Source of the DNA: a virus
Lineage: Duplodnaviria > Caudoviricetes
Length of the DNA: 64,000 nucleotides
Virus record (IMG/VR): IMGVR_UViG_3300023170_004399
Coordinates: 205,599 to 269,598 of that record
Direction: 5' to 3' (one strand)
This document shows, one piece after another, positions 1,270-64,000 of the stretch (the stretch's first letter is position 1; every line of letters starts with the position of its first letter). Position numbers and translations under genes: made by a program. The notes beneath the pieces are model-generated. The model saw nothing but the letters and a program-made list of their open reading frames with translations, made no database searches and was not told the DNA's origin.

Positions 1270-2760
1270 ATGAGAAATCACATAAATGACTCGTTAGAGT
1301 CATTAACTTTTTTGTTAGATGAAACCATATTACTTTTGAATGATAGTATTCTGACAGAAGGTTTACTTGACGATGTTTATAAAAACATTGACATGAAAGA
1401 TACACAAAATATCATAGACGCTTTAAAATCATCTATAGAACCAGTTTTAGAAGCAATAGATGAAGCAAAAAAAGATTCACCAGTACCATTACGTGAGTTT
1501 CTATTTAGCGGCCGTTTGCGTGAAATACTGGGTGTTTTAGAAAATTTAAATAAAGAAGAAGAACAAACAAAAATAAAAATAGCATTATTGTTCTTAGCTG
1601 AGGTCAAAGACGCTCTGCAACTATTAAACATATTCATGGTAGGACTAGGTAGATATTATCAAAATTCAGACTTTTACAAAAACAGAGATTTTGAAACTAG
1701 TGGACCCGGCAATATGAAAGTTGGCGAAGCTAATTTAGTATACATGATAAAGTTAGATGATGCAGCCAAACAAAAGATTATGGCAGACGAAAATGCTAAA
1801 ACTATTCTTACTAAGTTAGTTGAAAATTATAACAAAATGTACCAAGATATTACAGCTGCTATTGGCAATGTTATTAACAATGGTGCATTGTCTAAGTTAG
1901 CAAAATACGAAAAATCTAGTTTTTTTGGCTTTATAAAATCTGATGTGAAGAATGATGATGCTGTTGAGCTGCTAAATGATTTAGAAGAAGAGTGTAAAAA
2001 ATTATTAGGTCCAATTGACAATCTTAAGAAAAAATTTAATGCAGACAAAATGGGGTTTGCGTTCTTGTTATCTCCAATAACTGTTGAGAACATGGCTTTG
2101 AAATTAAGAGGATCAGCGGAAAGCGTAGATAATGCCACAGCAAAAGCCGAAGATTTACACGATGATATGCAAGCTGCAGAAACTGAAATGAAAGAAAAAG
2201 AAGGGGAATCATTTGCCGATTTAAAATCTGAAGTTGGCGAATCATTTGTTGACAAGTTTTACAATTTTGCAAAAGGCATTGGTTTAGATGACGAAAAAAT
2301 CAAAAAAGCTTTTGTTGTATTAGCAGATAAAAAAGATCAGATTAAGTCATACTTAGGATTGAAAAAAGAATCTTTTACAAGGATGAATTTGAGCTTATTA
2401 TTTGAAGTTGATGAAAAATCTGAAAGCTTTATTAAATTTATAAATCAACTGTTGAAAGATTTAGGTGCAGAATATAAGGAAGACGACGTTAAAAAGTTTG
2501 TCTCTTCTCTAGATAGCGGTGTAGAAGACACTCAATCAAAACCAGCTATCAAATTAACACGAGGACAACACAGAGAGTTTATAAAAAACTTTATGCAACC
2601 ACCCGCGGGATCTGACAAGAAACATATGTTCCAGTACTTACAAAGTGTCAAATCAAAACCGGCAACAGATAAAAAAGTTGCAACTACTATAGGGAAACAT
2701 ATGAATAAAGCAATTAAGGCAACGGGTAAAGATAAATTTGCAATATTCCCTGAGGAATAA
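1270..2760 (+). CDS. Hypothetical helical protein, putative head-associated
   Basis: Long ORF, GGAG RBS; ILTE-G and LLFE-V candidate Glu cleavage motifs. Confidence 0.6.
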   Translation: MRNHINDSLESLTFLLDETILLLNDSILTEGLLDDVYKNIDMKDTQNIIDALKSSIEPVLEAIDEAKKDSPVPLREFLFSGRLREILGVLENLNKEEEQTKIKIALLFLAEVKDALQLLNIFMVGLGRYYQNSDFYKNRDFETSGPGNMKVGEANLVYMIKLDDAAKQKIMADENAKTILTKLVENYNKMYQDITAAIGNVINNGALSKLAKYEKSSFFGFIKSDVKNDDAVELLNDLEEECKKLLGPIDNLKKKFNADKMGFAFLLSPITVENMALKLRGSAESVDNATAKAEDLHDDMQAAETEMKEKEGESFADLKSEVGESFVDKFYNFAKGIGLDDEKIKKAFVVLADKKDQIKSYLGLKKESFTRMNLSLLFEVDEKSESFIKFINQLLKDLGAEYKEDDVKKFVSSLDSGVEDTQSKPAIKLTRGQHREFIKNFMQPPAGSDKKHMFQYLQSVKSKPATDKKVATTIGKHMNKAIKATGKDKFAIFPEE

Positions 2761-2820
2761 CTGTTTTTAATTAAAAATAACATATTTATATAAAAAATAT
2801 ATTTTTTATTGGAGAGCACA

Positions 2821-6688: not shown

Positions 6689-7135
6689 ATGAAAAGATTA
6701 AACGAAAGAAAGCTTTTACGTATAATAAAGCAAAAGTATAAGCAAAGATTAGCGGATCGTTTAATTGAAGCTAATCTTTCAGAAATGGATATTGCAGATA
6801 AGCGTGGAAATGTGTTGTTATCGCGTGGTTTAAAAGTCAGACATAAAAAAAGCGGGTATGTGTATACAGTAGACAGTGTTGAAGGCACCGGCGAAAATAC
6901 CAAAGTAGTTTTAAGGCACCCAGATGAACCAAGAGTTGACCCTGGGGATTCTGTTGATAGTTTACACGAGGATGATGGTTTAGGTTTTGATATTAATGAT
7001 TTGAACATGGACAGAATAGCAAATAGACCAGTTGATCCTACAAAGGCCGGATTTGCAAAAAGTAAAATGCAAAAGTCACATGACACAATAACAGTAAGTA
7101 AGAAAACTTTTGAAGAAGAATACGAATTAGCATAG
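6689..7135 (+). CDS. Hypothetical protein with SH3-like segment and leader motif
   Basis: RLIE-A leader; GLKVRHKKSGYVYTVDSV beta-barrel pattern. Confidence 0.55.
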   Translation: MKRLNERKLLRIIKQKYKQRLADRLIEANLSEMDIADKRGNVLLSRGLKVRHKKSGYVYTVDSVEGTGENTKVVLRHPDEPRVDPGDSVDSLHEDDGLGFDINDLNMDRIANRPVDPTKAGFAKSKMQKSHDTITVSKKTFEEEYELA

Positions 7136-7142
7136 GTGTAAA

Positions 7143-7850
7143 ATGGATGATTTAATTAAAAAAGCTGTAGAACAAAGTTTAAAAAGAAGTAAATACATTA
7201 AGAAGCATGCTGATATTAAATCTAGCGTTACTTTAAATGAAGCTTATGTTGTGCAAGCAAAAAAATATGATTTAGCTACAGATTTACTTTCTGGTAAAAA
7301 CAAACAAGCCCACAACCAGTTGTTAGCTAAGTACGTTGAAGATTTAAATGCTGTTTCAGCTAAGTTAGATGCTGCTGATAGAGATGATGCGAATTTAAAC
7401 CACAGTGAATTTAGATCATTAAAAATAGATGAAGTATACAATTTAAATGCTGCATTTTTGCATGGCATGTTTTTTGAAAATATATCAGATATGCAATCTG
7501 TAATCACTATGGATAGTTTGGCATATATGCGATTGTCTCGTGATTTTGGTACGTTTGATGATTGGCAAAAAGATTTTGTAGCATGTGCTATGTCTGCTCG
7601 TAATGGTTGGGCAGTAACAGTTTACAACACATTCCTTAAAAGATATATTAATGTTGTTGTAGATTTGCATTCTTTGAATATACCATTTGGTTCAATACCA
7701 GTTATTGTTATGGATTGTTGGGAACATAGTTACTATAGAGATTATTTAAAAGATAGAAAAACATATGTTTTTGCAATGATGAAAGAATTAAATTGGAATA
7801 CTATTGAAGACCGGTTTAAAAAAGCTGACAAAATATCAAAGGTTGGGTAA
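7143..7850 (+). CDS. Fe/Mn superoxide dismutase (ChrC-like) with N-terminal extension
   Basis: Four metal ligands: QAHNQ, FLHGM, MDCWEHSYY; DFGTFDDW and NGWA; 33-aa extension ending TLNE. Confidence 0.85.
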   Translation: MDDLIKKAVEQSLKRSKYIKKHADIKSSVTLNEAYVVQAKKYDLATDLLSGKNKQAHNQLLAKYVEDLNAVSAKLDAADRDDANLNHSEFRSLKIDEVYNLNAAFLHGMFFENISDMQSVITMDSLAYMRLSRDFGTFDDWQKDFVACAMSARNGWAVTVYNTFLKRYINVVVDLHSLNIPFGSIPVIVMDCWEHSYYRDYLKDRKTYVFAMMKELNWNTIEDRFKKADKISKVG

Positions 7851-9753: not shown

Positions 9754-10148
9754 TTATATTGTTAACTAAGTTAGTTTTTGCGCAAACACCAGAATACACA
9801 TACATTGAGACTGGTGAACCAGCACCATTTTCTGGTCGTTTATTCAATGATGCTGCTAGCGAGCTGCTAAGTGAAACTATTGACGTTGGCTTGGAAAAAT
9901 GTAAATTAAATACTGAGTATGAGATTAAAAAACTGCAAATAGAGCATAATAAAGAGTTACAGAATTTAAAAAATGATTATAATATGGTCATTAAACAAAA
10001 AGATGCCAAAATACAAAAACTTAATAAGGATATAGAGATTCTTAATGATGTAAAAACACCACCTAAGCCTAAATTTTGGTTTTCATTAGGTGCTGGCACA
10101 ACTGCCGTTGTTTTTGGTACGTTAGCCTATCTCATTGGAGCTAATTGA
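9750..10148 (+). CDS. Putative spanin-like membrane protein
   Basis: Signal-like N-terminus, GEPAPFSG, coiled coil, C-terminal TM; adjacent to holin. Confidence 0.45.
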   Translation: MIILLTKLVFAQTPEYTYIETGEPAPFSGRLFNDAASELLSETIDVGLEKCKLNTEYEIKKLQIEHNKELQNLKNDYNMVIKQKDAKIQKLNKDIEILNDVKTPPKPKFWFSLGAGTTAVVFGTLAYLIGAN

Positions 10149-11281
10149 TGAAAATAAAAAAAAGCAAACTAGATAAAGCCATTGAAAATTGGTTGTTCGA
10201 AGATAGTGTACCTAATAGAAGAAATAATGTTACTGACGATAAAGTTGCAGGAACATTAGGTGATGAAAGAGATTTGGTACAAATGCCAATTGACCCGACT
10301 CCGCATGTTCCTTTGATATCAAGAAAAAAATTGCCAATAGACGACAGTAAATGGGAACCAGTCAACCCAGAAGAGTTAGCATATGCTGTAAAAGAATTAG
10401 CTGATGCAATACCTGATGAAAAGGTAGTGGCTGCTTATCAAATTATTAAAAAAACTATTGAACAAATTATTGAAAGGGAAAACCTTAAGGTTTCTGACAT
10501 TGCTTTTGATAAAGATTATAAAGAAAGTAATAAACCAATTAAGAGTATCAAAAAAGAGAGTTTAATAAGAGAAGCTGGCGGAGATGATGACGATGAAGAA
10601 TTTTTGCCGGACATTGATGACATTATAGAGTTTGCATCATTTAACCCGAATACAGATTTATCACTAGTGCCAGGTTTTGATGAAGCAATTGAAAAAGCTA
10701 AAAAAGAATATACTCTCGAAGACTTAGTTAATTTAGGTGTATATACTGGCGTTAAAACTAGTGGCCATATGAGAAATAAAATTGAAACAGAAATTTTTCC
10801 AGTTTTAGCTGCTAGTCGTAATGCTGTAGTGTTAATCAATAAACTGATAAGCTTTGTTAAATATTCCAAGTGGGCGCATGACATGTTTTTAGAAACCGGG
10901 CTTTTATCTGGCGCCTTAACTCATGACAATATTAATGATTTAAGGACAACTATTCTCATGTCTTCTTTAGACACTAGGGATAAATTTGGTTTTAAAAAAT
11001 CACACAAAGATATTCCAACAAGCTCACCACTTATGAGCGCATGGGGCTTCGTCATATATGAGGTTATAACAAAGCCAGCCATGAAATATTTAAAAAAATT
11101 AGATTATGACCCTGCTAATATTAATAATCAAGTAACGGTTGAAAATGCAGAAGCTATTATTGAAAAAATACAAGACCGTTGGAATACAATGCCAGCTAAA
11201 GGTGCTGGCACAACAAAGTTATCTATCTCTAAAAAAGCTTGGCTCGAATGGGCAGATTTTCAAATGAAATTTGGTAAATAG
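10148..11281 (+). CDS. Hypothetical protein, putative head-associated
   Basis: NWLFE-D and SLIRE-A motifs. Confidence 0.6.
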   Translation: MKIKKSKLDKAIENWLFEDSVPNRRNNVTDDKVAGTLGDERDLVQMPIDPTPHVPLISRKKLPIDDSKWEPVNPEELAYAVKELADAIPDEKVVAAYQIIKKTIEQIIERENLKVSDIAFDKDYKESNKPIKSIKKESLIREAGGDDDDEEFLPDIDDIIEFASFNPNTDLSLVPGFDEAIEKAKKEYTLEDLVNLGVYTGVKTSGHMRNKIETEIFPVLAASRNAVVLINKLISFVKYSKWAHDMFLETGLLSGALTHDNINDLRTTILMSSLDTRDKFGFKKSHKDIPTSSPLMSAWGFVIYEVITKPAMKYLKKLDYDPANINNQVTVENAEAIIEKIQDRWNTMPAKGAGTTKLSISKKAWLEWADFQMKFGK

Positions 11282-11283: not shown

Positions 11284-11616
11284 ATGAAGTTAATGAGTGT
11301 AATGGAAAAATATTTTGATAACGTGATTGCTGAAAGTGCAACACCGATAAAACCAAAACCAAGTACAAAAAAATGGATGCGTAAAGAAGATCCAAATCGA
11401 TTAGTACGCACATTCAATATAGAAGACAATAAAAAATATAATAAATTTCTTTACGCTGTTTTAGAACATCAGAGAAGTGTCAATCACCACGCAAAGATAT
11501 TAGCAGAATACCCTAATATTACAGTGGAGATATGGTCACACACAATAGAAGATATTACTGAGATGGATTTAGATTGGGCTCGAGATGTTTCGGCCTTATA
11601 CAAGAGAGAAAAATGA
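11284..11616 (+). CDS. Pterin-4-alpha-carbinolamine dehydratase-like protein with leader
   Basis: W..LVRTF...NHHAKI..YPNITVEIWSH..ITEMD..A pattern; leader ending VIAE. Confidence 0.75.
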   Translation: MKLMSVMEKYFDNVIAESATPIKPKPSTKKWMRKEDPNRLVRTFNIEDNKKYNKFLYAVLEHQRSVNHHAKILAEYPNITVEIWSHTIEDITEMDLDWARDVSALYKREK

Positions 11617-12647: not shown

Positions 12648-13301
12648 ATGCGTTGGTCAGCAAAGAAACTTAAGAATTTCATACTTAAAGAGGTAAGATT
12701 ACTTGAAAAACATGCACACGGTCACGATCCAATGAAAAGCATGGGAATGAGTGGTGTATCAGATTATGATGATTACTACGATGATGAAGATTTAGGAATG
12801 ATGGATGTACATATCCATAGACATCATGATGATGAAGAAGAAATGCATCCTTATGATATAGCTGATCAAATGCACGATGAAGATCACAGTCATGACATGC
12901 CTCATGGTGCAATGCCAGATTATCACAATCCAATGGACGATATGCATGATGAGCACATGGGGGCTGAGCATGATGATTATGATGATTATCACGATCACGG
13001 ATTAGAAATGGACGATGAAGATATGGATTTGGGCCCAGCATCCGGATTTAGCCCTAACTCATATGAAGATGATTATCCTGGTGTGAAAGATTTGCATTTA
13101 TATGAAGCAGATGAAGATGTAGATGAAGATGAGCTTAATGAATATGATGAGTTAGAAGAAGACGACGAAATTGATGAAGGTGGGTGTGGATCTTCTCGAG
13201 GCGGAATGTACGGAGAAGGTGACGAAGACGAAGACGAAGGTGAAAAACTGGAAGAAGGTCTTCGAAGATGGCAAAAATTAGCTGGTCTTTTAAGAGGGTA
13301 A
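12648..13301 (+). CDS. His/Asp/Met/Glu-rich low-complexity protein
   Basis: ILKEVRLLE leader, H/D/M-rich core, C-terminal EGLRRWQKLAGL; GGAG RBS. Confidence 0.7.
   Translation: MRWSAKKLKNFILKEVRLLEKHAHGHDPMKSMGMSGVSDYDDYYDDEDLGMMDVHIHRHHDDEEEMHPYDIADQMHDEDHSHDMPHGAMPDYHNPMDDMHDEHMGAEHDDYDDYHDHGLEMDDEDMDLGPASGFSPNSYEDDYPGVKDLHLYEADEDVDEDELNEYDELEEDDEIDEGGCGSSRGGMYGEGDEDEDEGEKLEEGLRRWQKLAGLLRG
13265..13286 (+). repeat. 22-nt repeat encoding RWQKLAG, copy 2
   Basis: Identical to 6651-6672. Confidence 0.85.
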
Positions 13302-14159: not shown

Positions 14160-15497
14160 ATGCGTAATAAGAAGTTATTGTTAGAAGGGTCGATGGATAA
14201 TTTAATTTCTGGTAATTTTGGTGCCAGTTCACCGGCCGGTCAAGCATTAAGAAATTTTAACACAGTTTTCATTGGTGTAACTCGTAAATTGTTAAGAGCA
14301 ACAATCATGTCGATCGATGTTGCTTTATTTACATGGTTTCCAACATCATACAAAGATGTTTTAAGAGATTATAAAAACGATATTAATGGTATTGAGAATA
14401 GTTACTCAGCTGCTTTGTCACAACTAACAGAAAACTTGCCAGTAGCGCAAAAAAGTATGTTGTTGTTAAACCCTGCAGCTTATTTTTTATATCATGGTAC
14501 TGAAATTTCCCAAACAGTGTTCGATAGTAATTCAAGCTTATATAATTTAATGCAACAAACTGGGTTTGACAAACTACCTGGGATTGGTTGGGCTTTTAGA
14601 GATCAATCGACACACGTAGTTGACCCTGAAAGATTATCCGAATATATTGATAATGGTCAAAATGGACTGGCATTAGCATATTTGTTTGGTAATCAAAACG
14701 TTTTAGATGCATTGCAGGGTCAAAAACAGGGTGGCGGTTCCGATGGTTCCTTTATGTCAAAACTTTTTGGCAAAATAAATGATATATTTACTGGTAAGGC
14801 TGTCGTCGATTTATTTAGAGAAAGTAAAACAATTAATAGAAAAGTTATTTTAGAAAACAAAAAAGACAAAGATCTTGTAAAACTATATGCAATATTGCTT
14901 AAGAGGCTTTCTAAAATAGCAATCAAAAATAAGATAAGTTTGATCGATGAAAAGCAGCAAGAAAAAGTTTTAAAAATACACGCAGCTGCATGTAAAAACG
15001 CAACGAAGCAATTGACAGAAAGAATGAAAGCATTAAATATATTGTTGGCTCTTGAAGATAAATCAAAAGAACCCAAAGAATATTATGCTGCGTTAGCAGA
15101 GTATAAAAGAATTGTAAATGACAAGAAATTAAGTCTCAGCAAAATTAAATCTGACATTAAAAGTGAAATGCCTAACATGTTACGTGACAAGAAAATATTG
15201 CAAGATTACAAAAAGACTAGTAAACGTGGTTCAATTGATAAAAAAGCTTTCCAGCAATATTGTGAATTAAGAATATTAAATAGTATAATTAATCAGATAA
15301 AGGTAACAGCTTATTCTGCCGGCGAAGAATTTTATCAAAAAGTTGAAAAAGATCTTTTGTTTGGGATGACAGCAAAGCAGCTGGTTTCGGGTCCGCAATC
15401 AAATGAATACACTAAAAAAGTATATAAGCAGTATGAAGACACCATTAAAAACGTGGCACGTGCCACGCGTGGCACAATTGGTAAAAAAAATAAATAA
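14160..15497 (+). CDS. Hypothetical protein, putative head-associated
   Basis: KKLLLE-G leader, internal VILE-N; GAGGT RBS. Confidence 0.6.
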   Translation: MRNKKLLLEGSMDNLISGNFGASSPAGQALRNFNTVFIGVTRKLLRATIMSIDVALFTWFPTSYKDVLRDYKNDINGIENSYSAALSQLTENLPVAQKSMLLLNPAAYFLYHGTEISQTVFDSNSSLYNLMQQTGFDKLPGIGWAFRDQSTHVVDPERLSEYIDNGQNGLALAYLFGNQNVLDALQGQKQGGGSDGSFMSKLFGKINDIFTGKAVVDLFRESKTINRKVILENKKDKDLVKLYAILLKRLSKIAIKNKISLIDEKQQEKVLKIHAAACKNATKQLTERMKALNILLALEDKSKEPKEYYAALAEYKRIVNDKKLSLSKIKSDIKSEMPNMLRDKKILQDYKKTSKRGSIDKKAFQQYCELRILNSIINQIKVTAYSAGEEFYQKVEKDLLFGMTAKQLVSGPQSNEYTKKVYKQYEDTIKNVARATRGTIGKKNK

Positions 15498-24988: not shown

Positions 24989-25301
24989 CCACATTGCTAT
25001 CAATGTTTCATCAATAAAAAACTCAATTGATTTTTACAGTCAGTTGGGTTTTTCCATTTTGTATGCGGATGAAACTTGGGCTCTTTTGCGTTTAAACGAT
25101 ATAAAGCTAGCTTTAACTTTAGCAGAACAGCATAAGCCTCATTTTGCTATTTCAGTAGCTGATGAACGCGATTTAATGTATTTTTATGACAACTATAATA
25201 AAGATATCGCAGAACATAGAGATGGAAGTAAATATATATATATAGATGATCCGGATGGAAACACTATAGAATACATTTATTGGCCGAAGAAAGATGAATA
25301 A
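24975..25301 (+). CDS. VOC/glyoxalase family protein
   Basis: LDHIAINV..SIDFY..LGF; HFAISV; YIDDPDGNTIEY. Confidence 0.85.
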   Translation: MNKLDHIAINVSSIKNSIDFYSQLGFSILYADETWALLRLNDIKLALTLAEQHKPHFAISVADERDLMYFYDNYNKDIAEHRDGSKYIYIDDPDGNTIEYIYWPKKDE

Positions 25302-46873: not shown

Positions 46874-47326
46874 ATGGAGATTAGTATGCGTTATAAAATG
46901 AAGGCTAGCGATTTAGCTATTGTAATAGAAACCGTAAAATATTTAGCTAAAGCAACTCCTAAAAAAAGAAATCTCGTTGAGTGTGCATGTGAAGACATGG
47001 AAGAGATGGCGGAAATGGATGGCACTGATGTTATTTCTTTAGTTATGGGTGTCGGCAAAGATGACAACTATCCCGATGAACATCATGGTGATGGTGGTAG
47101 AATGATGGATTATGGTCATACTAAATCAGATTCACATGAAGGTCGTATGACTAAGGCAAAGCTTTTCAGAATGGCACAGATGGCACAACGTTTACACGAT
47201 AAATTAGTTGACGCTGATGATTTACCTGAATGGGTGCAGGATAAGGTCACTACTGCAGAAGATAGATTAGCTTCAGCTCACGATTACATACTTTACAAAG
47301 TGTGGAGAATGAATAATGAAAAATAA
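46874..47326 (+). CDS. Conserved phage protein (EGRM..LPEWVQDK module), putative head-associated
   Basis: NLVE-C; HEGRMTKAKLFRMAQMAQRLHD..LPEWVQDKVT. Confidence 0.6.
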   Translation: MEISMRYKMKASDLAIVIETVKYLAKATPKKRNLVECACEDMEEMAEMDGTDVISLVMGVGKDDNYPDEHHGDGGRMMDYGHTKSDSHEGRMTKAKLFRMAQMAQRLHDKLVDADDLPEWVQDKVTTAEDRLASAHDYILYKVWRMNNEK

Positions 47327-49550
47327 ATATAGCCTTAAGCGATATTTTTTAAATGAATTTAATAGTCGAACATCCGGTAGGCAAAGAAAGTTTGATTTTC
47401 CCCTTGTTTTTGATGATGTACATCCTAAAATCATTACTAAAGATGGAAACTACGATAATATTATTTTTTATGTAACCCCTAATAAAAGAAAAAACGACCA
47501 AGGGAAAGACGAGCGATACATATATTATTTTGACTCAGATGATCTATCTAAATATTTTAGCTTTAAAGCAGAATCAGGGAATTATCGCAACGTTTATGAG
47601 GAAATGACACCAACCGCTTTTCAAGGATTTATTGATACTTTACGTTTGCAAAAATCACTTTTTGATAATCAAAAATATAATGAATGGAAGACAAATATTG
47701 AAAATCAATTAATTAAAGAACATCAATATGAATTTCCTGATCCAGAAGAACTAGAAGATGACCGTGATATGTATGATTTTTATGGTGATGAAATTCCTAC
47801 ACAAGATCAATATCTGGAACAAAATGAAGCTAAATATAACAAACAAGCTTATCATAGTCATATTTACGACTGGTATGTAAGAGAAGTGACTAGTATAACA
47901 AAGAACTCCTTTGATATTCATGCTAATGGAAGATTGTTAAAAAAGGGTACTACGAATGATTATCATTTTTCATTTCAAAATGAAAGAGCAATGAAAACCC
48001 GAGGCTATTATGATATAGATAAATTAATCCAAGCTCGCGAAAATTATAAAAACAAACAAAAAGTAAATTTTCCGGTGACTAGTTTGCGAAATATTATTGG
48101 TTTTGAACCATCAACCAGTTTCAATAACAAATCCCCTAAAAGAAATGTGATAAGAAGGGGTGTTCATGGTCATTCGTCTTCCAAAAGCAAACCAGTCGTG
48201 TTTTTTTATGGTAAAATATATAAACAAGTGATAACCGGATACGATAAAACCACCGGATTACCTCTTGTCTCTGGGGGAAGAGAATACATTACAGAAGAGC
48301 CTATATGGATTAGCGCTGAAAATATTAGAACAGCAACAGAAAAAAGATCTGAGAAGAATTCACACATTAGTCAGGAAGAGTACAATATAGCTCACGCCTT
48401 TTTTGAAGGTCCAAACGCGTTTACTCCTTTACAGAAATCGGACATAGAAGAATTACTTAAACCAGACACAAAAGCGTATGCTTACGAAGAAGCAATAAAT
48501 AAGATTTATGGCACAAGTGTACCTAAAATGATGTTAGATGGGGAAGAATTAGAGTTAGAGGCTATAAACATCAAGAAAGCATGGGATTATAACCCGGGAC
48601 AAACAGGCCGAGGAGAATACTTAATGTCGGCCATTTTTCCTCACTTAGTTGTTGTCGGCGGTTCAGCTGCGGAAGCCGGTGTTGATTTAATTCATTATGC
48701 TAACCCAGATATCAAATACGAAGTAAAAGAACCGGATTTTCGTGTTGGTGTAAAAAGTGTAAAACCAGCGATAGAATTTAGTAATTTCATCGTGCCTCAT
48801 ATTAATTATTTAATTAAGCAGCTTGAATCTGTAAAAACTAAATCCTATAAAAATTTAATGGCTATGGCGAATTCTCGCGTACAAATTTTCTTAGATGGCG
48901 AAAGTGTTTCAGAAAATATTGGAAAAGAAGAATTAATGGAAGCTTCACTGTTAAAATCTGATTGGATGGTCAAAGAACATGAAATTGTTAGTGAAGATTT
49001 AGATATAATGCTTCGAATAATAAATTCAAAACAAATATCAATGGATCAGTGGGAAAAAGCTGTTGCCGAATATTTTAAATACACGATTGACTGGTGTCTT
49101 GATCAATGTGCAGAAATACTTCAGAGATCTCAAAGTTTAGAAGTAGCTCCATCTGTCATAACAGATTTAGTAGGTGCATACAATTATTATGATATTAGTT
49201 TTCCCCGCGGTATACAAAACACTGATCAGTATTTAGATCTTCTTAGGCGTAACTATGTAAAAGCATTAAACCCTGAAATAGTTTTATCTGGTACGACTTT
49301 AATGATAGTTGGCGAAACCCATTTTCGTATTTTAACACCAGGTAAACTAAAAGAGTTAGTAATGAAGAGCGTAAATGGTCAATTAGAAAAGAAAATTGCT
49401 TCGATAACTTCTGGTGGTGCTGGTTTTGATCTTAAAAAAATATATATGGAACAATTAGACGCTGATGTGACTGGCTTGTTAGATACTAATACAGAGGAAA
49501 GCTTAGGTGAATCAATTAACCGTTGGGTTAAGTGGGCCACGAGAAAATAA
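47316..49550 (+). CDS. Large protein with leader and PD-(D/E)xK-like nuclease domain
   Basis: YSLKRYFLNE leader; GRGEYL..GVDL..KYEVK; C-terminal ESINRWVKWA. Confidence 0.55.
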   Translation: MKNKYSLKRYFLNEFNSRTSGRQRKFDFPLVFDDVHPKIITKDGNYDNIIFYVTPNKRKNDQGKDERYIYYFDSDDLSKYFSFKAESGNYRNVYEEMTPTAFQGFIDTLRLQKSLFDNQKYNEWKTNIENQLIKEHQYEFPDPEELEDDRDMYDFYGDEIPTQDQYLEQNEAKYNKQAYHSHIYDWYVREVTSITKNSFDIHANGRLLKKGTTNDYHFSFQNERAMKTRGYYDIDKLIQARENYKNKQKVNFPVTSLRNIIGFEPSTSFNNKSPKRNVIRRGVHGHSSSKSKPVVFFYGKIYKQVITGYDKTTGLPLVSGGREYITEEPIWISAENIRTATEKRSEKNSHISQEEYNIAHAFFEGPNAFTPLQKSDIEELLKPDTKAYAYEEAINKIYGTSVPKMMLDGEELELEAINIKKAWDYNPGQTGRGEYLMSAIFPHLVVVGGSAAEAGVDLIHYANPDIKYEVKEPDFRVGVKSVKPAIEFSNFIVPHINYLIKQLESVKTKSYKNLMAMANSRVQIFLDGESVSENIGKEELMEASLLKSDWMVKEHEIVSEDLDIMLRIINSKQISMDQWEKAVAEYFKYTIDWCLDQCAEILQRSQSLEVAPSVITDLVGAYNYYDISFPRGIQNTDQYLDLLRRNYVKALNPEIVLSGTTLMIVGETHFRILTPGKLKELVMKSVNGQLEKKIASITSGGAGFDLKKIYMEQLDADVTGLLDTNTEESLGESINRWVKWATRK

Positions 49551-52317: not shown

Positions 52318-52345
52318 ACCGCATATTTATATATGCGGTTTTTTT
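52318..52345 (+). terminator. Rho-independent terminator with TATTTATA across the loop
   Basis: ACCGCATAT-TTAT-ATATGCGGT then T tract. Confidence 0.8.
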
Positions 52346-55105: not shown

Positions 55106-55152
55106 TTATAAAAAATTGATCCTGCAGGTATAATATCTTTATAGGAGGTATT

Positions 55153-55556: not shown

Positions 55557-56363
55557 ATGCGTTTAGTAAGATCCTATATTAGAAATATATTGTCAGAAAG
55601 CTTTCAAGTTAGAGGTTATATAAAGCCTATAAAAGCTTTCAAGACATTAAAAGAATGGGAACACATAGCTAGAATGCTATTGTTATATCAGCGATCAGGT
55701 ATTAGCGTAAGAAATAAAACTATACCCGGTCCTATATACGATATAATACAACAAAACTTTGGCTATTTACTATATGATGAAGTAGCTAACTATGACAGTT
55801 TCAACACAGAAAACGTGTTAATATTCATTGAAGATTTTATTAATCACAGAGTGTGGTCTATTAAACGTCAATATGCACCATATTTTAAAGATATTGATTC
55901 TTTAAGATTTGCATATTTTTACAGTCGTGGAGATATTGAACCATACGTCTTAATGAATAGGGAATTTACATACCAAATTTATGGCAGTAACAAGAATCTG
56001 AAAATAGTAAGTCATTTTACTAACCAAGAGGGTATGAATAGAATACAATATTCTATAGAAAAGCAAGAACCTATAGACATTTCTGCTTTTACATATATGA
56101 TGGATAGTTATTTTGATGAGAAAGCAAATATTAAATTAAAATTAATTGGTAATGTAAAAGCTGCCTTTAAATCAGATATTAAATCTGTTGTGGTAGATAA
56201 TGGTATGCGCGCATGTAACATGTTAAGATTAGATTATCCGGGTGAAGAAACAAATATATGTTATGACTTGGATGAATGCGACGAGCCTAACAAAACTAGT
56301 TTATGGAATGAATATATTGTAACACCAGTAAAAATATTAGATGCGAGTACAGTAAATGATTGA
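55557..56363 (+). CDS. Putative ADP-ribosyltransferase-fold protein with leader (paralog 3)
   Basis: VRSYIRNILSE leader; SHFTNQEGMNRI / DISAF / LIGNVKAAFKSD / WNEYIV. Confidence 0.5.
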   Translation: MRLVRSYIRNILSESFQVRGYIKPIKAFKTLKEWEHIARMLLLYQRSGISVRNKTIPGPIYDIIQQNFGYLLYDEVANYDSFNTENVLIFIEDFINHRVWSIKRQYAPYFKDIDSLRFAYFYSRGDIEPYVLMNREFTYQIYGSNKNLKIVSHFTNQEGMNRIQYSIEKQEPIDISAFTYMMDSYFDEKANIKLKLIGNVKAAFKSDIKSVVVDNGMRACNMLRLDYPGEETNICYDLDECDEPNKTSLWNEYIVTPVKILDASTVND

Positions 56364-59300
56364 TGAAATTGGCATAAGAAAATATATAAGAATTCTTTTA
56401 GAGCAGAGACCGGAAAAAGTAACTTTTGGCAATGCAGAAACCCAAAACGATTTTGAAAATAGAACAAAACAAATTGATACAAGATTGCGTGACTACATTG
56501 GTAGCGGTGATTTTCAAATATCATTCCCAAAAAAAGGTGTGTCTAGAGGGAAAGATACTATTATTAATAAGATTTTGCAACAGCAACAACACATTACTAA
56601 TTCTAAGGGTAGGTACAAATATTTTAAAAGACAACATTTTAGTAAAGCTGATTTAGAAAAACTTTATGCTGATACAGATCCGGCCAATGCACAGAAATGG
56701 TTACCTCGTTTACCAGCAATAACTGGCAACGAATTTTTAGGGTTAATATCAAAATATTATACATTTTTTAATCAGATAGATATAGACAATGATGGAATAC
56801 CGGGAGATATTGATGATATCAGTATATCATTAGCACACTATTTTACTAAAAACGAAGAAGAAATTAAAAGTAATATCAAGAAAAATGTGTACAACAAATA
56901 TGTTAAAACTTTTAACCAGGATATAATAAAAGATTTTAAAAACGTAGATGTAAAATCAGTAACTGAAAAAGAAATAGAAAGTTGGATGGAAAGATCACAG
57001 CAATATATGAGAACAATGATGCGACCATATCTAGAAGTTTTTGAAAAAGAAATAATAGATTTTATGTATGACGAGCTCTATTTTGGCGCCATCAATGCTA
57101 CAACCCAAAATATGCAATATAACACGACAGTGCTTTTACCCTACCCTAATCTTTATTATTCATTTAAATACATAGGTAACGCTTCATCAATAGGCTATCA
57201 CAACATTAAATCATTTTTTCATGAGTTATATAATCAAGTTTTAAATATGAAAAAAATATTTGACCCAAATACAAACCGCGACAAAATGCTACGTATTTTA
57301 GGTGACAGTAAGAAATTTAATTTTGTTCTTTATTCTTTTGATTTAATTTGGTCTCCAAATCTGATTATCGATGAAAAAGAACATGAAGATATAATGGCAT
57401 CAGATTACTACAAAAACCCAAATGCATTTTATGATTGGGAAATAAAAAAAGCACATGCTGAGCGTATTACGCCTCAAACGCTATCTCCAATGGACATTGA
57501 TGCATTTGCAAGAACACTTAAGTCACATGACAACAAGGAAATAGTGAAAAAACTTGAAAAAAGTTTAGAAAGAATATCAAAACAAAAAGATTATACTGGT
57601 GATAAAATAGAACGCATGCCGGCTACAGAGAAAGAGATTATGCAACTTTCCAGAGATGCAGCCGCAAAACCTAGGTACTCATACACAATAAAAGAGCTAG
57701 AAGAAATATTCGAAGAAACTTTAGATGTTGTTGAAGATATTACAGGTGTCAAACCTGAGGCAATGGTTGATGAAAACAATAACAGAACAGGTGACATAGA
57801 AAAAAGAGAAGAAGCTTTGATAGAAGCGGTTAAAGAATTTACAGAAATGTCAAACAAACTTAACAAATCTTGGTTTGATGCATATTATAATTCTAAAAAA
57901 TACAATGATTGGTGGGACTTAGGCGGAAGGTACGAAGATGTTACTAAAAATCAAAAGCAAGTAGTTGTACTTGATGGCGATGTAACTGGAATGCCAGTTG
58001 CTGGCGGCATAAAAATAAAACATGAAGATGTGCATCATTTTTTTAAGTCACTAGTTGACCCAGCTGGTGTAGTCAAAGAACCAACCCCGGCATTCCCAAA
58101 AGAAGGTATCAGTTCAGATAGGTCATTTACATTTATTGACAAGATAGGGTACCAAAGAAAACCCAGTGTCAAACTTGAAGGTGGTAAAATAAGAAAATCT
58201 TCTAATAAACCAACCCTAGAGTGGACAACGCACAATTTTTCACCAAAGGCATATGCCGATCATGTCATTGTACGCAAAGGAAATTATAAACCATTTTCTA
58301 GCTACGTAAAAATACCGGTAATTCATACAACCAGAACTAGCATGAAAGAGATGCAAAAAAAATACAGCATTAACAAGGATTTGTGGAAAGCACTAGATAA
58401 TTTGCCGCGGTTTAATCCACACAGAGATTATAGACAGGAAGAAACTATAGCAAAAAGAGAATTAATTCCAATAGCAGAATTTATAAAAAAACTAGAAGCG
58501 GCTGAAGATACACTTTTGAAAGATTATGCGGATTATGTTAAAGCACAAGAGAAACTTAAACTATTGGGCAGTGGTTCAGTCGCATCTTCTGTCATTGACT
58601 TGTTAAACATTTACAAGGAATTAATTGATGATTTAAATGAAATAGAAGAAGTGCATTCGCTAGCTGACAATCCTAAAAAAGTAACTGATGAAGAGATTCA
58701 ACGATTGATCAAATCTTCTGGAATGAATCAAATGGAAGCAGAAGAACTGAAACAAAAAATAGCTTCTCTTTTGGGCGCTTGTAGTATTGGTAATAAAGGT
58801 GCTTGCGACGAACTAAGAGAAATATTTCTAGATCTCGAAGCAAAAGAAAAGCAGTCTAGGGCAAGAAAACGAAAAGAACAGTTCCATAGATCGTCAGCTG
58901 GGTCTAAAAGAGCTTTCGGGAGAAATAACCAAGAATTCCTTGTAAATGCCGAAGCAAGAAAAGAATTATTTTTTAATATTGCTAAGTTGTTAAGCATGTT
59001 ACATCAGATGAAACAAAGCAGTGATAAAAAGCTTTTCTCTGAAGAGACCGGTGTTTTTATTGATAATATTATTAAAGGTGCTAATGCTGCAGCATTAAAT
59101 GCTGGCGGCGAAGCCAGCGGCCGCCGCCCCCAGCTCACGAATTACCTGGTAAATAAAAGTATTGTTGATGTATTAAAAGATAACCAAATATTCTCTGGTG
59201 AATTCGAGACAAAACATAGCCAAGCAAGCAGTGACTTAAAACAAACACAATCGTCCTTGCAACGAGTAAAAATGGACAATTTTAGATTCGATCTTGAAAA

Positions 59301-60567
59301 TCGTGTAAAACAAAGAACAAAGACTTTTAAAAGCCTGTCGGATTTTACTAAACACTCCCAAGAAACTTTAGATTTAATATCAGACATGTATGAAAATTTA
59401 TATCCTCACATACATGATAAATACTTTGGTGAAAAAAGATTGATTGCAGATGAATACCAAAAGCAATTAAGTAATTTTAAAAGCGGAAAGGCTTCAGACT
59501 TTGATGGAATGCCAATTGAAATACTAAAAACTGTTTTAAAAGCTTATAATGATATATTAAAGTATCAAACTTTTGAAACTGAATTTGCAAAAACCGGTCA
59601 GGCAACAACATACAGTAAAGGTGTTGAGTTAGCCTTAGAGAAAGAAATAACAGCTAACGAAGAATATTTACGAAAAATGAAAAAAGCAGCCGTTGATGAT
59701 GATATGGAATTATTTGAGCAGGGTAAGCACGAGCTTCAAAAAAGATTACAAAACATAATGGAAAAGATTGATGTCCCAGCACAAGAAATAGAACGAGCTG
59801 GCGATAAGGTAGTAACAGCAGCTGCAAAAGAGGGTTATGAATTAGTTCAATATATTAGTAATATGTTTGATGAAATAGAACATATCGTAGAACTCAAAGA
59901 AGATATGCAAAGACCAGAGATCAGTCATGGAAAACGAGCTGAAAAATTCTTCGAATATATAATGGGTACAATTGAGAATCATGACGGAGTTAGAGAAAGC
60001 TGGAGGGGTGAAGAAATAGATTATTTTGAAGATCTAAATGCAGTTTTTGATAATCCTATAGACCCGGATAAAATATTTATTGGTGTAACTATGCATCCCG
60101 AGAATTCAACAGGGTTAATGTCTAAGATGCAAGATAGATTTGGGGGAGATTTTGAACATTCAAAGGCAACTGATTATGATTTTGATGGAAGTATTTCTTG
60201 GAACGATTATCATTTAGATGATATAGATATAGTTTACGTACATATCAATATTGAGCCGGATGCCTTTTCGGGTGCAAAAGATTTTGACAAAGCGCAGGAC
60301 CTCGCGAGGATTTTATTTAGATTATGTGACATATTAGACAAACCAATGTACAAGGGTGAGGCTGACCGGGAAATTATTAAAGATCTTTTCGGAGCAGATG
60401 AAGCATATCTTGCGGGTGATATACGAAAATATTTTGTTGATGCAATAGATGCTAGCTTTTTTGAGAACGAGATAGATTTTTTTAGAGATATAAATGATCG
60501 TCTCTGGGTTTTTACAGAAAAATTAAAGAAAGATATTAGTCTTCATTTTATATTGCCTAAAAAATAA
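56356..60567 (+). CDS. 1403-aa protein with leader, function unknown
   Basis: IRKYIRILLE-Q leader; largely helical, no recognised catalytic motif. Confidence 0.65.
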   Translation: MIDEIGIRKYIRILLEQRPEKVTFGNAETQNDFENRTKQIDTRLRDYIGSGDFQISFPKKGVSRGKDTIINKILQQQQHITNSKGRYKYFKRQHFSKADLEKLYADTDPANAQKWLPRLPAITGNEFLGLISKYYTFFNQIDIDNDGIPGDIDDISISLAHYFTKNEEEIKSNIKKNVYNKYVKTFNQDIIKDFKNVDVKSVTEKEIESWMERSQQYMRTMMRPYLEVFEKEIIDFMYDELYFGAINATTQNMQYNTTVLLPYPNLYYSFKYIGNASSIGYHNIKSFFHELYNQVLNMKKIFDPNTNRDKMLRILGDSKKFNFVLYSFDLIWSPNLIIDEKEHEDIMASDYYKNPNAFYDWEIKKAHAERITPQTLSPMDIDAFARTLKSHDNKEIVKKLEKSLERISKQKDYTGDKIERMPATEKEIMQLSRDAAAKPRYSYTIKELEEIFEETLDVVEDITGVKPEAMVDENNNRTGDIEKREEALIEAVKEFTEMSNKLNKSWFDAYYNSKKYNDWWDLGGRYEDVTKNQKQVVVLDGDVTGMPVAGGIKIKHEDVHHFFKSLVDPAGVVKEPTPAFPKEGISSDRSFTFIDKIGYQRKPSVKLEGGKIRKSSNKPTLEWTTHNFSPKAYADHVIVRKGNYKPFSSYVKIPVIHTTRTSMKEMQKKYSINKDLWKALDNLPRFNPHRDYRQEETIAKRELIPIAEFIKKLEAAEDTLLKDYADYVKAQEKLKLLGSGSVASSVIDLLNIYKELIDDLNEIEEVHSLADNPKKVTDEEIQRLIKSSGMNQMEAEELKQKIASLLGACSIGNKGACDELREIFLDLEAKEKQSRARKRKEQFHRSSAGSKRAFGRNNQEFLVNAEARKELFFNIAKLLSMLHQMKQSSDKKLFSEETGVFIDNIIKGANAAALNAGGEASGRRPQLTNYLVNKSIVDVLKDNQIFSGEFETKHSQASSDLKQTQSSLQRVKMDNFRFDLENRVKQRTKTFKSLSDFTKHSQETLDLISDMYENLYPHIHDKYFGEKRLIADEYQKQLSNFKSGKASDFDGMPIEILKTVLKAYNDILKYQTFETEFAKTGQATTYSKGVELALEKEITANEEYLRKMKKAAVDDDMELFEQGKHELQKRLQNIMEKIDVPAQEIERAGDKVVTAAAKEGYELVQYISNMFDEIEHIVELKEDMQRPEISHGKRAEKFFEYIMGTIENHDGVRESWRGEEIDYFEDLNAVFDNPIDPDKIFIGVTMHPENSTGLMSKMQDRFGGDFEHSKATDYDFDGSISWNDYHLDDIDIVYVHINIEPDAFSGAKDFDKAQDLARILFRLCDILDKPMYKGEADREIIKDLFGADEAYLAGDIRKYFVDAIDASFFENEIDFFRDINDRLWVFTEKLKKDISLHFILPKK

Positions 60568-60580: not shown

Positions 60581-61189
60581 ATGTTAATTAAAAAAACAAT
60601 ATTAAAAAAAATAATTAAAGAAGAGATTAGTAGAAAGAATGCTTTATTGTTAGAGGCAACTATGTGGGGTGTCTCTGCAGTTGGTATTCTAGTTATATGC
60701 CCAGAAGATCAAACCATGTACCTTCAACAAAGAAGCGACTTAGTAACTGGTGGAAGATTGCAATACTCATATCCTTCTGGCGGAATAGCTGCTAATAATG
60801 CGCGAGGTGTTAAACATTATGATACGAGAAATATTACGCAAGATATGGTGCCGCAAACACAAAAAGATTATGAGTTGTTAGCACTTGAAGAGTGGGAAGA
60901 AGAAACTGGTATGCCAATAATGTTTACGATAAAAGAAAATAAAATAACAGCCACAGTTGACAGTACTTGGAATTTTCATTTTTATATTGCTACATGCACG
61001 AAAAAGCAGAAAGATGCAATGATAGCGCAGGCAAAACCGGTCGACTTTGAATTTAACTGGGAAACAACGCCTGATAGTGGTGGCTGGTATCCAATGTCAG
61101 TTTTAGATGGCAGAGATAAAAATATAAACTTGTGGAATATTGCTTTTAATCAAGCTGTAAAAACACTGATCAGGAAGTATAGTAATTAA
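60581..61189 (+). CDS. Nudix hydrolase with leader
   Basis: ALLLE-A leader; AVGILV..LQQRS..YPSGG..ALEEWEEETG. Confidence 0.65.
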   Translation: MLIKKTILKKIIKEEISRKNALLLEATMWGVSAVGILVICPEDQTMYLQQRSDLVTGGRLQYSYPSGGIAANNARGVKHYDTRNITQDMVPQTQKDYELLALEEWEEETGMPIMFTIKENKITATVDSTWNFHFYIATCTKKQKDAMIAQAKPVDFEFNWETTPDSGGWYPMSVLDGRDKNINLWNIAFNQAVKTLIRKYSN

Positions 61190-61787: not shown

Positions 61788-61814
61788 GTATATTTATATG
61801 AAGAGGTAAGTTAC

Positions 61815-62483
61815 ATGAAAAAGTTGAGAAAATATATAAGACATTTAATTTTAGAGTCGAGCGGAAACAGTAAGATAGATGACATAATTTCAACCATCGA
61901 TGGCTTTGATGCTGGGATAAAGATTGTACCTGGTGAAAGAAAGGGAAAAATAGATATTGTTTACTGTGAAAAACCTAAAAATAAAAAAGAACCCGCAGAT
62001 TTTTTCTTTGATGAAAGCCATTTATCAGATCGTGCGAAGGCATACTACAAAAAGAACAAGTTAGATCTAGAAGATTTAGTAGGTGCGCTTACAATCATGA
62101 AAATGACTAGTGCTGATATCAGAAATTATGGTAATTGCAATGGAGCATACAAGGTCGATATAATAGAAGCCCCAGCCGGCTTTGGACCATTGTTGTATGA
62201 AGTTGCTCTTGAGTATTTATACAATTATAGAAGCAAAAATGGTTTAATACCTGATAGAAGAAGCGTTAAACCCGAAGCCGCAAATGTTTGGAAAGTATAT
62301 AATAGCAAGAGAGATGACGTAAAAAAAATACAGTTGCACCCCGATGATTGTGATATGGAAGTTGCAGGTGGAAAATCAAAATATAAAAAATCAGAGTTGT
62401 CAAAAATGTATGTGAAAAATAACACGAAGACAATAGAAATGTTAAAAAAGCGCAAAATGCTATACATATCACCAAAATTGTAG
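61815..62483 (+). CDS. GNAT-like protein with leader
   Basis: LRKYIRHLILE leader; CNGAYKV..GFGPLLYEVA..DRRSV..AANVW. Confidence 0.6.
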   Translation: MKKLRKYIRHLILESSGNSKIDDIISTIDGFDAGIKIVPGERKGKIDIVYCEKPKNKKEPADFFFDESHLSDRAKAYYKKNKLDLEDLVGALTIMKMTSADIRNYGNCNGAYKVDIIEAPAGFGPLLYEVALEYLYNYRSKNGLIPDRRSVKPEAANVWKVYNSKRDDVKKIQLHPDDCDMEVAGGKSKYKKSELSKMYVKNNTKTIEMLKKRKMLYISPKL

Positions 62484-62490: not shown

Positions 62491-63627
62491 ATGAAAAATT
62501 TAAGAAGTTTTATAAGGAAAATTGTATCTGAAGGCATGATTAACCCGAATAGTGGCGAAATATTGCAGAACTACGCGTTATATGCCGCAAATGATTACGA
62601 TTCTCCCTCGAGTGCCGGCGTTAAAATTTATATCCTTTATAACAAAACAGAAGTAGCAGAAAGATTAAGTGATAAAGAAACAATAATAGATATGTTCGCA
62701 CCGCTAATAAGAAAAACAGTGACCGGCAAGCTTGTATTAGGATTTAATGACTCTGGAGAAAGATGGAACTGGGATGATGTAAGATCCTTTTTTTGGGAAA
62801 TAATATATGAACACACATACGCAATTATAAAAACTAAAAAAAATGATATTGATTGCAATGGCGCAGTGCAAGTTGTAAGAGCCGCGGCAAAACAAGGTCA
62901 TGGTCCAACGTTGTATGATATCGTAATGTCTATTGAACCGAATGGTATAACTTCGGACAGAGCACAGGTTAGCTCCTCTGCTAGGGAAGTCTATAGATTT
63001 TACGCAGAAAAACGTCCAGAGATTGAAAAAAAATACCTTGATGGCGGCATGTTAACTGATATAACATCTGATGATTGTTACACATACATGACACCAAAAG
63101 AAATGTATAAAAACAGCTTACTAAGAAAAGCTGTTTACGAAGCTTTCGGTGACTGGTTAATTAGTTACAATCGTGAAATTTATCAAGCGCTTGACAACAA
63201 AGGCGGTTTTTACGATGTGGTAGATCACTTCGGAGGTCCAGATGATGTTATAAGATACATAATTGATTCTGTTGAGTTTGGAGAAATGTATGATGAAGGC
63301 GAGTTAAGTGAGCTGCAAACTAGTTGGTATGAAGAAAAAGAGGAAATAGAAAAAAATCTCTATAAACTAAAACCACCCGCCATTTTAGAACCCAAAGAAG
63401 AGCTTAACTTAAGTTATAATACTGATTATGCTGTGAGCGCTTTCAATAAATTAACGGCAGCACACGATAAATTTTTAGATGAAATGGAAATGGGGTTGTA
63501 CTATATGTTGCAAGAAATATATGGCCGTGAAGTGCCAATCGATGGTATGATAACCGATTTAAAACCAAGTTTTTGGGAAAATATATTATTGGATTTTTTC
63601 CATGCTCACTACGAAGGTGGCAAATGA
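62491..63627 (+). CDS. GNAT-like protein with leader
   Basis: LRSFIRKIVSE leader; CNGAVQV..QGHGPTLYDIV..DRAQVS..AREVY. Confidence 0.6.
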   Translation: MKNLRSFIRKIVSEGMINPNSGEILQNYALYAANDYDSPSSAGVKIYILYNKTEVAERLSDKETIIDMFAPLIRKTVTGKLVLGFNDSGERWNWDDVRSFFWEIIYEHTYAIIKTKKNDIDCNGAVQVVRAAAKQGHGPTLYDIVMSIEPNGITSDRAQVSSSAREVYRFYAEKRPEIEKKYLDGGMLTDITSDDCYTYMTPKEMYKNSLLRKAVYEAFGDWLISYNREIYQALDNKGGFYDVVDHFGGPDDVIRYIIDSVEFGEMYDEGELSELQTSWYEEKEEIEKNLYKLKPPAILEPKEELNLSYNTDYAVSAFNKLTAAHDKFLDEMEMGLYYMLQEIYGREVPIDGMITDLKPSFWENILLDFFHAHYEGGK

Positions 63628-64000
63628 GTAGTTTAAGATTATTAGTTTCACAAATTATTGCAGAAGCAATGAAAGATCCACGCAGTGATAAAGTACAAAC
63701 AAATTTTGCACTTTATCACGGTACTGCAGATTATTTATATAAAAACTATATTTTATATGATAAATCTAAAATGAAAAGCATGATGAGACATCATCTTAGA
63801 ACTGAAATTTCTGCTTACGCTGCTAACGAAGAACCCATCACCCCGGGTGACGAATATACTTTTTACATGTCATTAGAATTTGAATCTTCTCTGAGAAATG
63901 TGTTTACTGCAATACTTCCTCACTGTGTTGTCGCTGTAATACAAACAAAAGAACCCTTCGACAGCTGCAATCTCGCTTCGGAAGTAAGCAGAGCTGCAGC
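63624..64000 (+). CDS. GNAT-like paralog with leader, truncated by window end (not in ORF track)
   Basis: MSSLRLLVSQIIAE; NFALY..YILYDK..VAVIQTK..SCNLASEVSRAA aligns with 62491 protein; ATGA overlap. Confidence 0.6.
   Translation, partial: MSSLRLLVSQIIAEAMKDPRSDKVQTNFALYHGTADYLYKNYILYDKSKMKSMMRHHLRTEISAYAANEEPITPGDEYTFYMSLEFESSLRNVFTAILPHCVVAVIQTKEPFDSCNLASEVSRAA

Follow-up and report, generated by a model that had tools for sequence, protein, structure and literature searches.

We analysed a 64,000-nucleotide stretch of DNA (the window) from an uncultured virus of the Caudoviricetes (positions 205,599 to 269,598 of IMG/VR record IMGVR_UViG_3300023170_004399), in which a set of otherwise different proteins begins with a short, basic leader that ends in glutamate. 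These leaders are probably capsid-targeting propeptides of the bacteriophage T4 type, belonging to a much enlarged system with several leader classes. A tag of this kind, loading enzymes into the virion, had been proposed in an earlier note on this DNA, and the proposal came through all the computational tests able to refute it; packaging, cleavage and co-ejection with the DNA we infer. The capsid-targeting reading is supported because the motif is N-terminal, is selected as a peptide, stands on unrelated protein bodies and ends in (L/I)-x-E followed by a small residue, and because the prohead protease is encoded, together with the head genes, in the same genome. The tag is also modular, and it goes together with the protease across phages.

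The window agrees, with 1 mismatch, with the 269,730-bp contig k141_1002057 of ENA ERZ27313218 (window position 1 corresponds to contig position 215,327), and its G+C content is 33–35%. Its source is an uncultured marine jumbo phage related to T4, with a genome of about 270 kb. A syntenic relative, IMGVR_UViG_3300020473_000010 (G001; 288,697 bp, 96% complete), served as an independent test set for the leader searches; 37 of the 92 window proteins have counterparts in it, at 23–77% identity. Pfam and PHROGs searches with 20 tagged or neighbouring window proteins gave almost no matches. Related loci sought with the protein at 62491, and an exact 50-mer search of IMG/VR, gave none, and a word-based homologue search with the protein at 61815 retrieved two near-copies only. 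No paper describing these leaders was found by full-text searches for leader strings and for capsid-targeting sequences (CTS) in papers on marine phages, jumbo phages and cyanophages, closed-access literature being outside this scope.

Leader classes and the proteins that bear them

Three leader classes were defined. Class A, with the consensus MKxLRKYIRxILxE, is borne by seven open reading frames (ORFs) of the window; class B has the consensus MKITKRQLKRIIREE, and class C the consensus MKLLxENWRxFLxE, which appears as MKLIMESWRKFLLRE in the ORF at 34584. A regular expression for class A gives seven matches within the first 31 residues of the window ORFs, all beginning at residues 1–7, and none in 16,910 internal residues. 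To guard against circularity, a 13-column class A matrix was built from G001 leaders only. Applied to the 1,242 candidate starts of the window and the following 8.5 kb, it finds 13 class A leaders, all opening long ORFs; since seven of the 13 lie just beyond the window end, the array continues past it, running on from 63624 for 8.5 kb with these seven further leaders. In G001 there are 14 class A leaders in a single array (31.9–45.3 kb) and about 25–29 class B leaders, mostly on proteins of 80–140 residues. Over 135 kb of the window's genome, the tags are held in such leader arrays, the replication and tail genes being essentially tag-free. A Sec or Tat signal peptide was considered for the leaders and rejected: they carry a charged residue every 3–4 positions, end in Glu and lack an uninterrupted hydrophobic core of 7–15 residues with an A-x-A site after it.

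All seven of the tight-form leaders described earlier lie where they had been placed (25294, 30619 on the minus strand, 55557, 56356, 61815, 62491 and 63624), each at a start codon. The first, MNKLRYFIRKIILE (25294..26034, plus strand; matrix score 15.1), precedes a 232-residue body of the "E-x-I-I-D-N-W" family, a paralogue of the protein at 34584. The second, MNNNLLTKYIQKLILE (29747..30619, minus strand; score 17.8), opens a 290-residue protein of no known family, with an ATAWTTA element 42 nt upstream. The leader MRLVRSYIRNILSE (55557..56363, plus strand; score 11.5) stands on a 268-residue protein whose G001 orthologue aligns only from residue 16. This orthologue was considered as a leaderless case and dropped as ambiguous: the upstream frame reads KNKLFELLFGELF and has no standard start codon. 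A variant with a one-residue deletion, MIDEIGIRKYIRILLE (56356..60567, plus strand; score 8.0), begins a 1403-residue protein of no known family. The last three are consecutive on the plus strand: MKKLRKYIRHLILE (61815..62483; score 27.5) on a 222-residue GNAT-like protein, MKNLRSFIRKIVSE (62491..63627) on a 378-residue long paralogue of the same family, and the variant MSSLRLLVSQIIAE (63624..64000) on a 355-residue paralogue cut by the window end.

The other leaders, all on the plus strand, are more varied, and those grouped in the earlier note as a second form fared unequally. The class C leader MSNMKLIMESWRKFLLRE (34584..35528) scores 31.1 with a class C matrix built from unrelated database proteins, and opens the 314-residue paralogue of 25294. 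The leader MKNKYSLKRYFLNE at 47316..49550, containing KYSLKRYFLNE, is conserved in G001, where the orthologue has MSKQKKYSLKRLLSE at the same position. The remaining two of that form are weak: the leader at 52346, and the class C-like MIYRNIIKGWKRFLQE at 26682..27269, which falls below the threshold of the class C matrix. Three N-termini resemble class B in sequence. These are MLIKKTILKKIIKEE (60581..61189; 202-residue protein), which scores 11.3 against 7.4 for the best shuffle; the diverged MKRLNERKLLRIIKQKY...RLIE (6689..7135), whose G001 orthologue, MRKKLTERHIIKIIREEY, scores 13.5; and MKIKKSKLDKAIENWLFE (10148..11281), kept as MKIKESKLRSAIKDWLFE in a G001 orthologue whose body is only 32% identical.

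Two further proteins have N-terminal extensions that are kept in G001. The Fe/Mn superoxide dismutase (SOD) at 7143..7850 carries a conserved 33-residue extension ending in TLNE, and the 445-residue protein at 14160..15497 starts with MRNKKLLLE, a plausible leader whose K-x-LLLE is retained in the orthologue. The pterin-4a-carbinolamine-dehydratase-like protein at 11284..11616 is a weakly supported candidate: its 17-residue extension ends in VIAE, and its G001 orthologue has a different extension, ending in LLNE. The very acidic, His-rich 217-residue protein at 12648..13301 begins with the candidate leader LKNFILKE.

Number of leaders above background

The earlier note had counted about 24 tagged proteins, which is an overcount. 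The generic signature H..HH(H).E (H = LIVFYWM) was counted in the first 35 residues, with the internal rate as expectation. It occurs 23 times in the window against 8.9 expected (2.6-fold; p=5e-5) and 86 times in G001 against 30.4 expected (2.8-fold), so that the predicted N-terminal enrichment is present in both. Over 100 kb of phiKZ there is no N-terminal enrichment (13 observed, 11 expected), and the control motif [SAG]-x-E shows none either. Because 8.9 of the 23 window matches are expected as background, the real leaders in the window number about 12–14, with about half of the looser ones at chance level.

The idea that many of these looser leaders are chance matches to a common tripeptide stands about evenly balanced. 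In its favour, besides the expected background, [LI]-x-E occurs in the first 35 residues of 42 of the 76 window proteins; against it, the overall excess is significant and absent in phiKZ, and several of the loose leaders are conserved in orthologues. Thus at 6689, 7143, 10148 and 14160 the hydrophobic-x-Glu ends are kept in G001 orthologues of 23–66% identity, and 60581 exceeds its best shuffle, while those at 1270, 2821, 7852, 11284, 11954, 12648, 29750 (minus strand) and 46874 have no support of their own.

The proteins said to lack a leader do lack one: none of GroEL, CarA, CarB, ClpS, UvdE, Def and MT-A70 scores with any leader matrix. In UvdE, Def and MT-A70 there is no room for a leader, because the Pfam match begins at residues 3–5, at the start of the profile; in GroEL, CarA, CarB and ClpS it begins later.

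Selection on the peptide

Synonymous codons vary freely within the leaders. Six codons, both CGN and AGR, are in use for Arg5, up to five for the Leu positions, and 154 of 341 pairs of identical leader residues use different codons. Selection, on this codon evidence, is on the leader peptide. The alternative that the conserved element works as a nucleic acid, whether it enhances translation, forms an RNA structure or serves as a recombination site in cassette shuffling, with the peptide as a by-product, would suit the tight arrays of tagged genes with conserved 5' ends, which are favourable to recombination. We consider it extremely improbable, given that synonymous sites are free, including CGN/AGR and TTR/CTN switches that alter first codon positions, and that the conserved unit is an amino-acid pattern.

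A putative cleavage-site signature and class swapping in one cargo family

The family of the GNAT-like protein at 61815 allowed the leader to be followed on a single type of body. A profile search of 1.84 billion proteins found 2,470 family representatives (50% identity clustering); in the best 149 of the 2,470, class A scores are reached by 81 and class B scores by 4, and many others are class C or variants. The 77 short members, about 30–40% identical to 61815, were aligned and a tree was built. Only ten columns of this alignment are invariant, the leader Glu among them. At P1, Glu is found in 77 of 77 members and Asp never, though the two are similarly frequent in the proteome (Glu 7.3%, Asp 6.9%); P3 is Leu or Ile in all 77, and P1' is Ala, Gly or Ser in 68 (88%). 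As read from the alignment, this signature is that of the T4 gp21 site.

The leader classes alternate on the body tree (A in 53 members, C in 15 and B in 3), and at least 4, 2 and 3 changes of class are required by the well-supported branches taken by themselves. This alternation on one body tree, together with the fixed junction, indicates that leaders of the different classes can replace one another as modules, each meeting the body at a conserved (L/I)-x-E with a small residue after it.

An AlphaFold 2 (AF2) model of 61815 made with the 77 sequences has a mean predicted local distance difference test (pLDDT) of 82, with leader residues 2–16 as a detached, low-confidence helix; a model made with 8 sequences (pLDDT 47) was unusable. 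Residues 30–205 match GNAT-fold structures with middling Z values of 6–8, and GNAT enzymes make up nearly all of the 50 best chains, among them the tRNA-acetylating toxins AtaT, TacT and KacT. A Foldseek search of the PDB gave no match at E≤0.001 (best E 7e-3), and no Pfam family matched, Acetyltransf included; in related Atlas clusters, PF00583 is found in 14–55% of the members. The model suggests a GNAT-like acyltransferase family. A complex prediction of the protease with residues 1–45 of 61815 scored 0.02, a value with no bearing on binding either way. For the 25294/34584 family, a likeness to DarT and ADP-ribosyltransferases is a weak Atlas lead only.

Portability across unrelated bodies

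The bodies that follow the leaders are mostly unrelated, as the earlier note had it. After removal of the leaders, 38 tagged proteins from the window's genome and G001 fall into 26 clusters unrelated by BLAST. The description does not hold for two paralogue families, one comprising 61815, 62491 and 63624 with a domain of 52346, the other 25294 and 34584. The recognisable fold had been said to start right after the Glu in three proteins. This stands for SOD: the leader's TLNE ends at residue 33, and in alignments to PDB structures the first residue of the fold falls at about residue 31. In the dehydratase-like protein at 11284, the Pfam match covers residues 28–104, equivalent to profile positions 15–90. 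For 60581, the segment LEEWEEETGM resembles a Nudix box; Pfam and PDB sequence searches did not confirm the family. That the cargo consists of modifying enzymes is borne out in part, by the GNAT-like fold here and, among the tagged proteins of G001, by an AAA_33/Zeta-toxin-type kinase whose domain starts at residue 25 and by HD domains.

The paralogous proteins would fit a history in which all tagged proteins form one diverged multigene family and the leader is simply its conserved first helix, inherited in common. Such a history is very unlikely. It is contradicted by the 26 clusters among 38 proteins, by bodies spanning SOD, GNAT-like, AAA_33/Zeta and HD folds, and by the alternation of three non-homologous leader classes inside one family. 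Class B tells the same way: among the matches listed in a wider search, 222 distinct class B bodies form 160 clusters.

A T4-type head operon in the same genome

The prohead protease and capsid genes, sought elsewhere in the genome as the earlier note had advised, were both found in a T4-type head operon on the same contig (152,875–173,087), about 60 kb upstream of the window. The operon encodes Portal_T4, a 280-residue ORF, Peptidase_S77 (202 residues), small ORFs, bS21, a 604-residue scaffold with poly-acidic and poly-Arg blocks, and the Gp23 capsid protein; PF03420, PF07230 and PF07068 are all on the 269,730-bp contig. The lack of a gp21-like protease, which the earlier note had regarded as fatal to the idea, does not apply, because Peptidase_S77 is encoded in the same genome. 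This protease (2748–3356 of locus L034; PF03420 match) is similar to T4 gp21 (5JBL; E=4e-15), and its G001 counterpart reaches 89.9 bits against a cut-off of 27. Its GELDHP and GISSRG motifs align to two Ala positions of the 5JBL chain, placing His and Ser there; we take these to be the catalytic residues, as in the T4 enzyme. In the capsid protein, VLRE followed by Ala is found at about the position of T4's LTE followed by Ala.

Leader-like motifs recur within the operon. The ORF after the protease starts with the class B-like MAKLNKKALKQLIKE. A 192-residue protein (L034 5142–5720, about 57 kb before the window) has a class A motif as its C-terminal end, LLRKYIRNLIEV, where the G001 orthologue reads LREWIRLTLKRIL; judging by this motif, the protein may belong to the core and use the docking site of the leaders or compete for it.

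A different motif, R-W-Q-x-L-A-G-[IL], ends both the scaffold (L034 6024–7838, LDRWQVLAGIKK) and the protein at 12648–13301 (LRRWQKLAGLLRG). A related ELAGIIHRS is found near the N-terminus of the protein at 7852 (7852–7900), and the scaffolds of G001 and of Flavobacterium phage immuto share an RWQxLAG-type C-terminus (RWQKLAGIIK in immuto). Possibly it serves as another docking motif, directed perhaps at the shell or the portal, and the 12648–13301 protein is likely a head-core component. The bS21 homologue (L034 5721–5972) is located between the core proteins and the scaffold, as it is in G001, and two adjacent tail-sheath paralogues of 1037 and 996 residues are encoded at 13750–19893 (L033/L034).

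Leaders in other phages

A degenerate DNA pattern for class B occurs in at least 116 IMG/VR stretches, with up to 7 copies in a few kilobases. Among the matches listed, there are 256 class B starts on ORFs with a median of 100 residues. Peptidase_S77 is found in 18 of the 27 large class B records; when only those of at least 50% completeness are counted, 15 of 16 have it. Flavobacterium phage vB_FspM_immuto (NC_055915), which is in culture, has the related leaders MKKSQLRQIIKE, MKKSELVKLIKEE and MKKSQLREIIRKE and an S77 protease. In immuto (locus L159), four otherwise different proteins, at 103806, 117631, 118632 and 125241, share the N-terminus MEN(T)FDLKKFLVENKLT..., which may represent another leader class.

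A proposed capsid-targeting mechanism and its rival

In the proposed mechanism, the leader would form a basic amphipathic helix of 14–18 residues, the hydrophobic face of which (class A positions 4, 7, 8, 11 and 12) would dock the freshly synthesised protein on the prohead's scaffold core. The last turn of the leader, (L/I)-x-E with Ala, Gly or Ser after it, would be the cut site of the gp21-family prohead protease, which would remove the leader once the shell has closed. The mature protein would remain in the head, exit with the DNA at the next infection and act in the next host. The cargo would consist of fast-evolving small proteins and enzymes, mostly array-encoded, with GNAT-like acyltransferases here and a Zeta-toxin-type kinase and HD-domain proteins in G001.

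Several points weigh against this mechanism. Packaging and cleavage of the leader proteins of this uncultured phage are deduced from sequence. The leaders are strongly basic (net +3 to +5), as opposed to the slightly acidic T4 CTS, and their likeness to it is limited to the spacing pattern, peptides of this length being unsuited to a homology test. The system would imply a very large cargo, the excess of about 50 proteins in G001 going far beyond any characterised head. The (L/I)-x-E ending is common by chance, as described above. The class B Glu is usually followed by a second Glu rather than a small residue, and for this reason the true class B cleavage may take place at another site, around residue 22. 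Finally, a strict form of the class B DNA pattern, sought with up to 3 mismatches, is absent in the cultured phages S-PM2, Syn9, HTVC008M and Mel-JY01.

The same features could be accounted for by an uncleaved helix that docks or localises its protein elsewhere than in the capsid, for example on the membrane, at a hub protein or in a factory for replication or assembly; in that case, the terminal Glu would belong to the binding surface. A basic amphipathic helix is of generic membrane-binding character, the AF2 model shows the leader as a free helix, and its cleavage is itself predicted. We regard this explanation as unlikely, though less so than those of common descent or nucleic-acid function. 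The lack of any Glu-to-Asp exchange, the restriction of P3 to Leu or Ile and the small P1' residue in 88% of the family are features of a protease site and not of a helix, and the three classes have only the last turn in common. Moreover, the motif recurs in head-operon proteins and the tag co-occurs with Peptidase_S77.

To our knowledge, among portable peptides by which proteins enter a phage head to be injected, the T4 CTS is the only well-studied case, and a handful of proteins use it. In T4, the internal proteins as well as Alt carry a CTS of 10–19 residues, which reads MKTYQEFIAE in IPIII (PMC9026906, PMC8442874, PMC3012670). Residues 4 and 7 act in targeting and residues 8 and 10 in processing, which is blocked by Asp at position 10 (PMC9026906, PMC8442874), and any protein fused to the CTS is packaged (PMC9026906, PMC8442874, PMC3012670). 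Variable internal-protein loci with CTS-like starts are found among the T-even phages (PMC9026906, PMC3012670). The leaders described here resemble the T4 CTS in being short N-terminal propeptides on unrelated, fast-evolving proteins and in ending with (L/I)-x-E, and the H..HH.E spacing of its four functional residues also ends classes A, B and C. Likewise, a gp21-family protease, a gp22-like scaffold, a gp23 capsid protein and a gp20 portal are encoded in the same genome. The leaders differ from the T4 CTS of IPI–III and Alt in length (14–18 residues against 10) and in their strongly basic character, and members of one cargo family exchange at least three distinct classes. Tagged genes are more numerous by an order of magnitude, with 13–14 in 135 kb here and an excess of about 50 in G001, compared with about 6–8 in T4. 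The cargo here, known from sequence alone, includes recognisable enzyme folds.

In phiKZ-like phages, the protease site is S/A/G-x-E and the propeptides are long (PMC5694885); two SPN3US paralogues have an identical 15-residue N-terminus that was likened to a CTS (PMC5694885). phiKZ, 201phi2-1 and SPN3US are jumbo phages, like the one studied here, in which a gp21-related protease makes its cuts after Glu and internal head proteins are many, but their propeptides mostly exceed 100 residues and are not a shared portable tag. Encapsulin cargo-loading peptides and P22 scaffold-fusion loading illustrate that a short portable peptide suffices to bring unrelated enzymes into an HK97-fold shell. These tags are C-terminal or engineered, uncleaved and unlinked to delivery with DNA.

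The wider proposition, to which we assign slightly less than an even chance, is that a cosmopolitan clade of marine T4-related phages (140–290 kb) sends at least a tenth of its proteome into the capsid through at least three interchangeable leader classes resembling secretion signals. If this holds, sequences could directly reveal the repertoire of effectors that thousands of uncultured phages inject, including toxin-like enzymes such as GNAT proteins, Zeta-type kinases and possibly ADP-ribosyltransferases, and the leader may also keep these inactive until it is removed by the head protease. The T4 logic appears here to have been extended to dozens of genes in each genome, with several classes swapping on one cargo family, and to occur in abundant marine phages. 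Confirmation would provide a sequence rule by which the effectors that uncultured phages deliver in their virions can be predicted, a large and untapped source of candidate proteins for anti-defence and host takeover, and new, possibly orthogonal tags for packaging foreign proteins in phage capsids.

Promoters, terminators and other genes

The element ATAWTTA is found 15–50 nt upstream of 13 of the 56 spacer-bearing genes, with about 3.6 expected. Six of the 13 are head or tail genes and five or six open leader operons, which lends slight support to capsid targeting. Per-gene promoters were considered for the leader genes and rejected, most of these genes sitting inside operons with no spacer. 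Sigma-70-type promoters precede the untagged genes 15960 (TTGACT...TATAAT, about 15900–15955) and 55153 (TTGATC...TATAAT, 55100–55150).

A GC-stem hairpin with a T-run (CCGCATATTTATATATGCGG-TTTTTTT; 52300–52345) lies just before 52346, and GGGC-TTTTTTT (61790–61800) before 61815; both look like intrinsic terminators. The terminator-like element before 52346 contains ATATTTA, which was counted among the promoter candidates.

Runs of small ORFs (52–82 residues) with M-K-V-G-D-L-V-type starts occupy 36631–36834, 38427–39218 and 46232–46859, and the same family is found at 19–25 and 47–48 kb in G001. The window genes at 17552–19186, 42082–45871, 39196–40412, 21115–21837, 30691–31602 and 23672–24208 include GroEL, CarA, CarB and ClpS, with an adenosine deaminase, a sigma-70-family factor, the UV endonuclease UvdE and a peptide deformylase as further products at these coordinates. 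Upstream of the window (loci L029 and L030), ClpP, a glutamine synthetase and the alpha subunit of DNA polymerase III are encoded.

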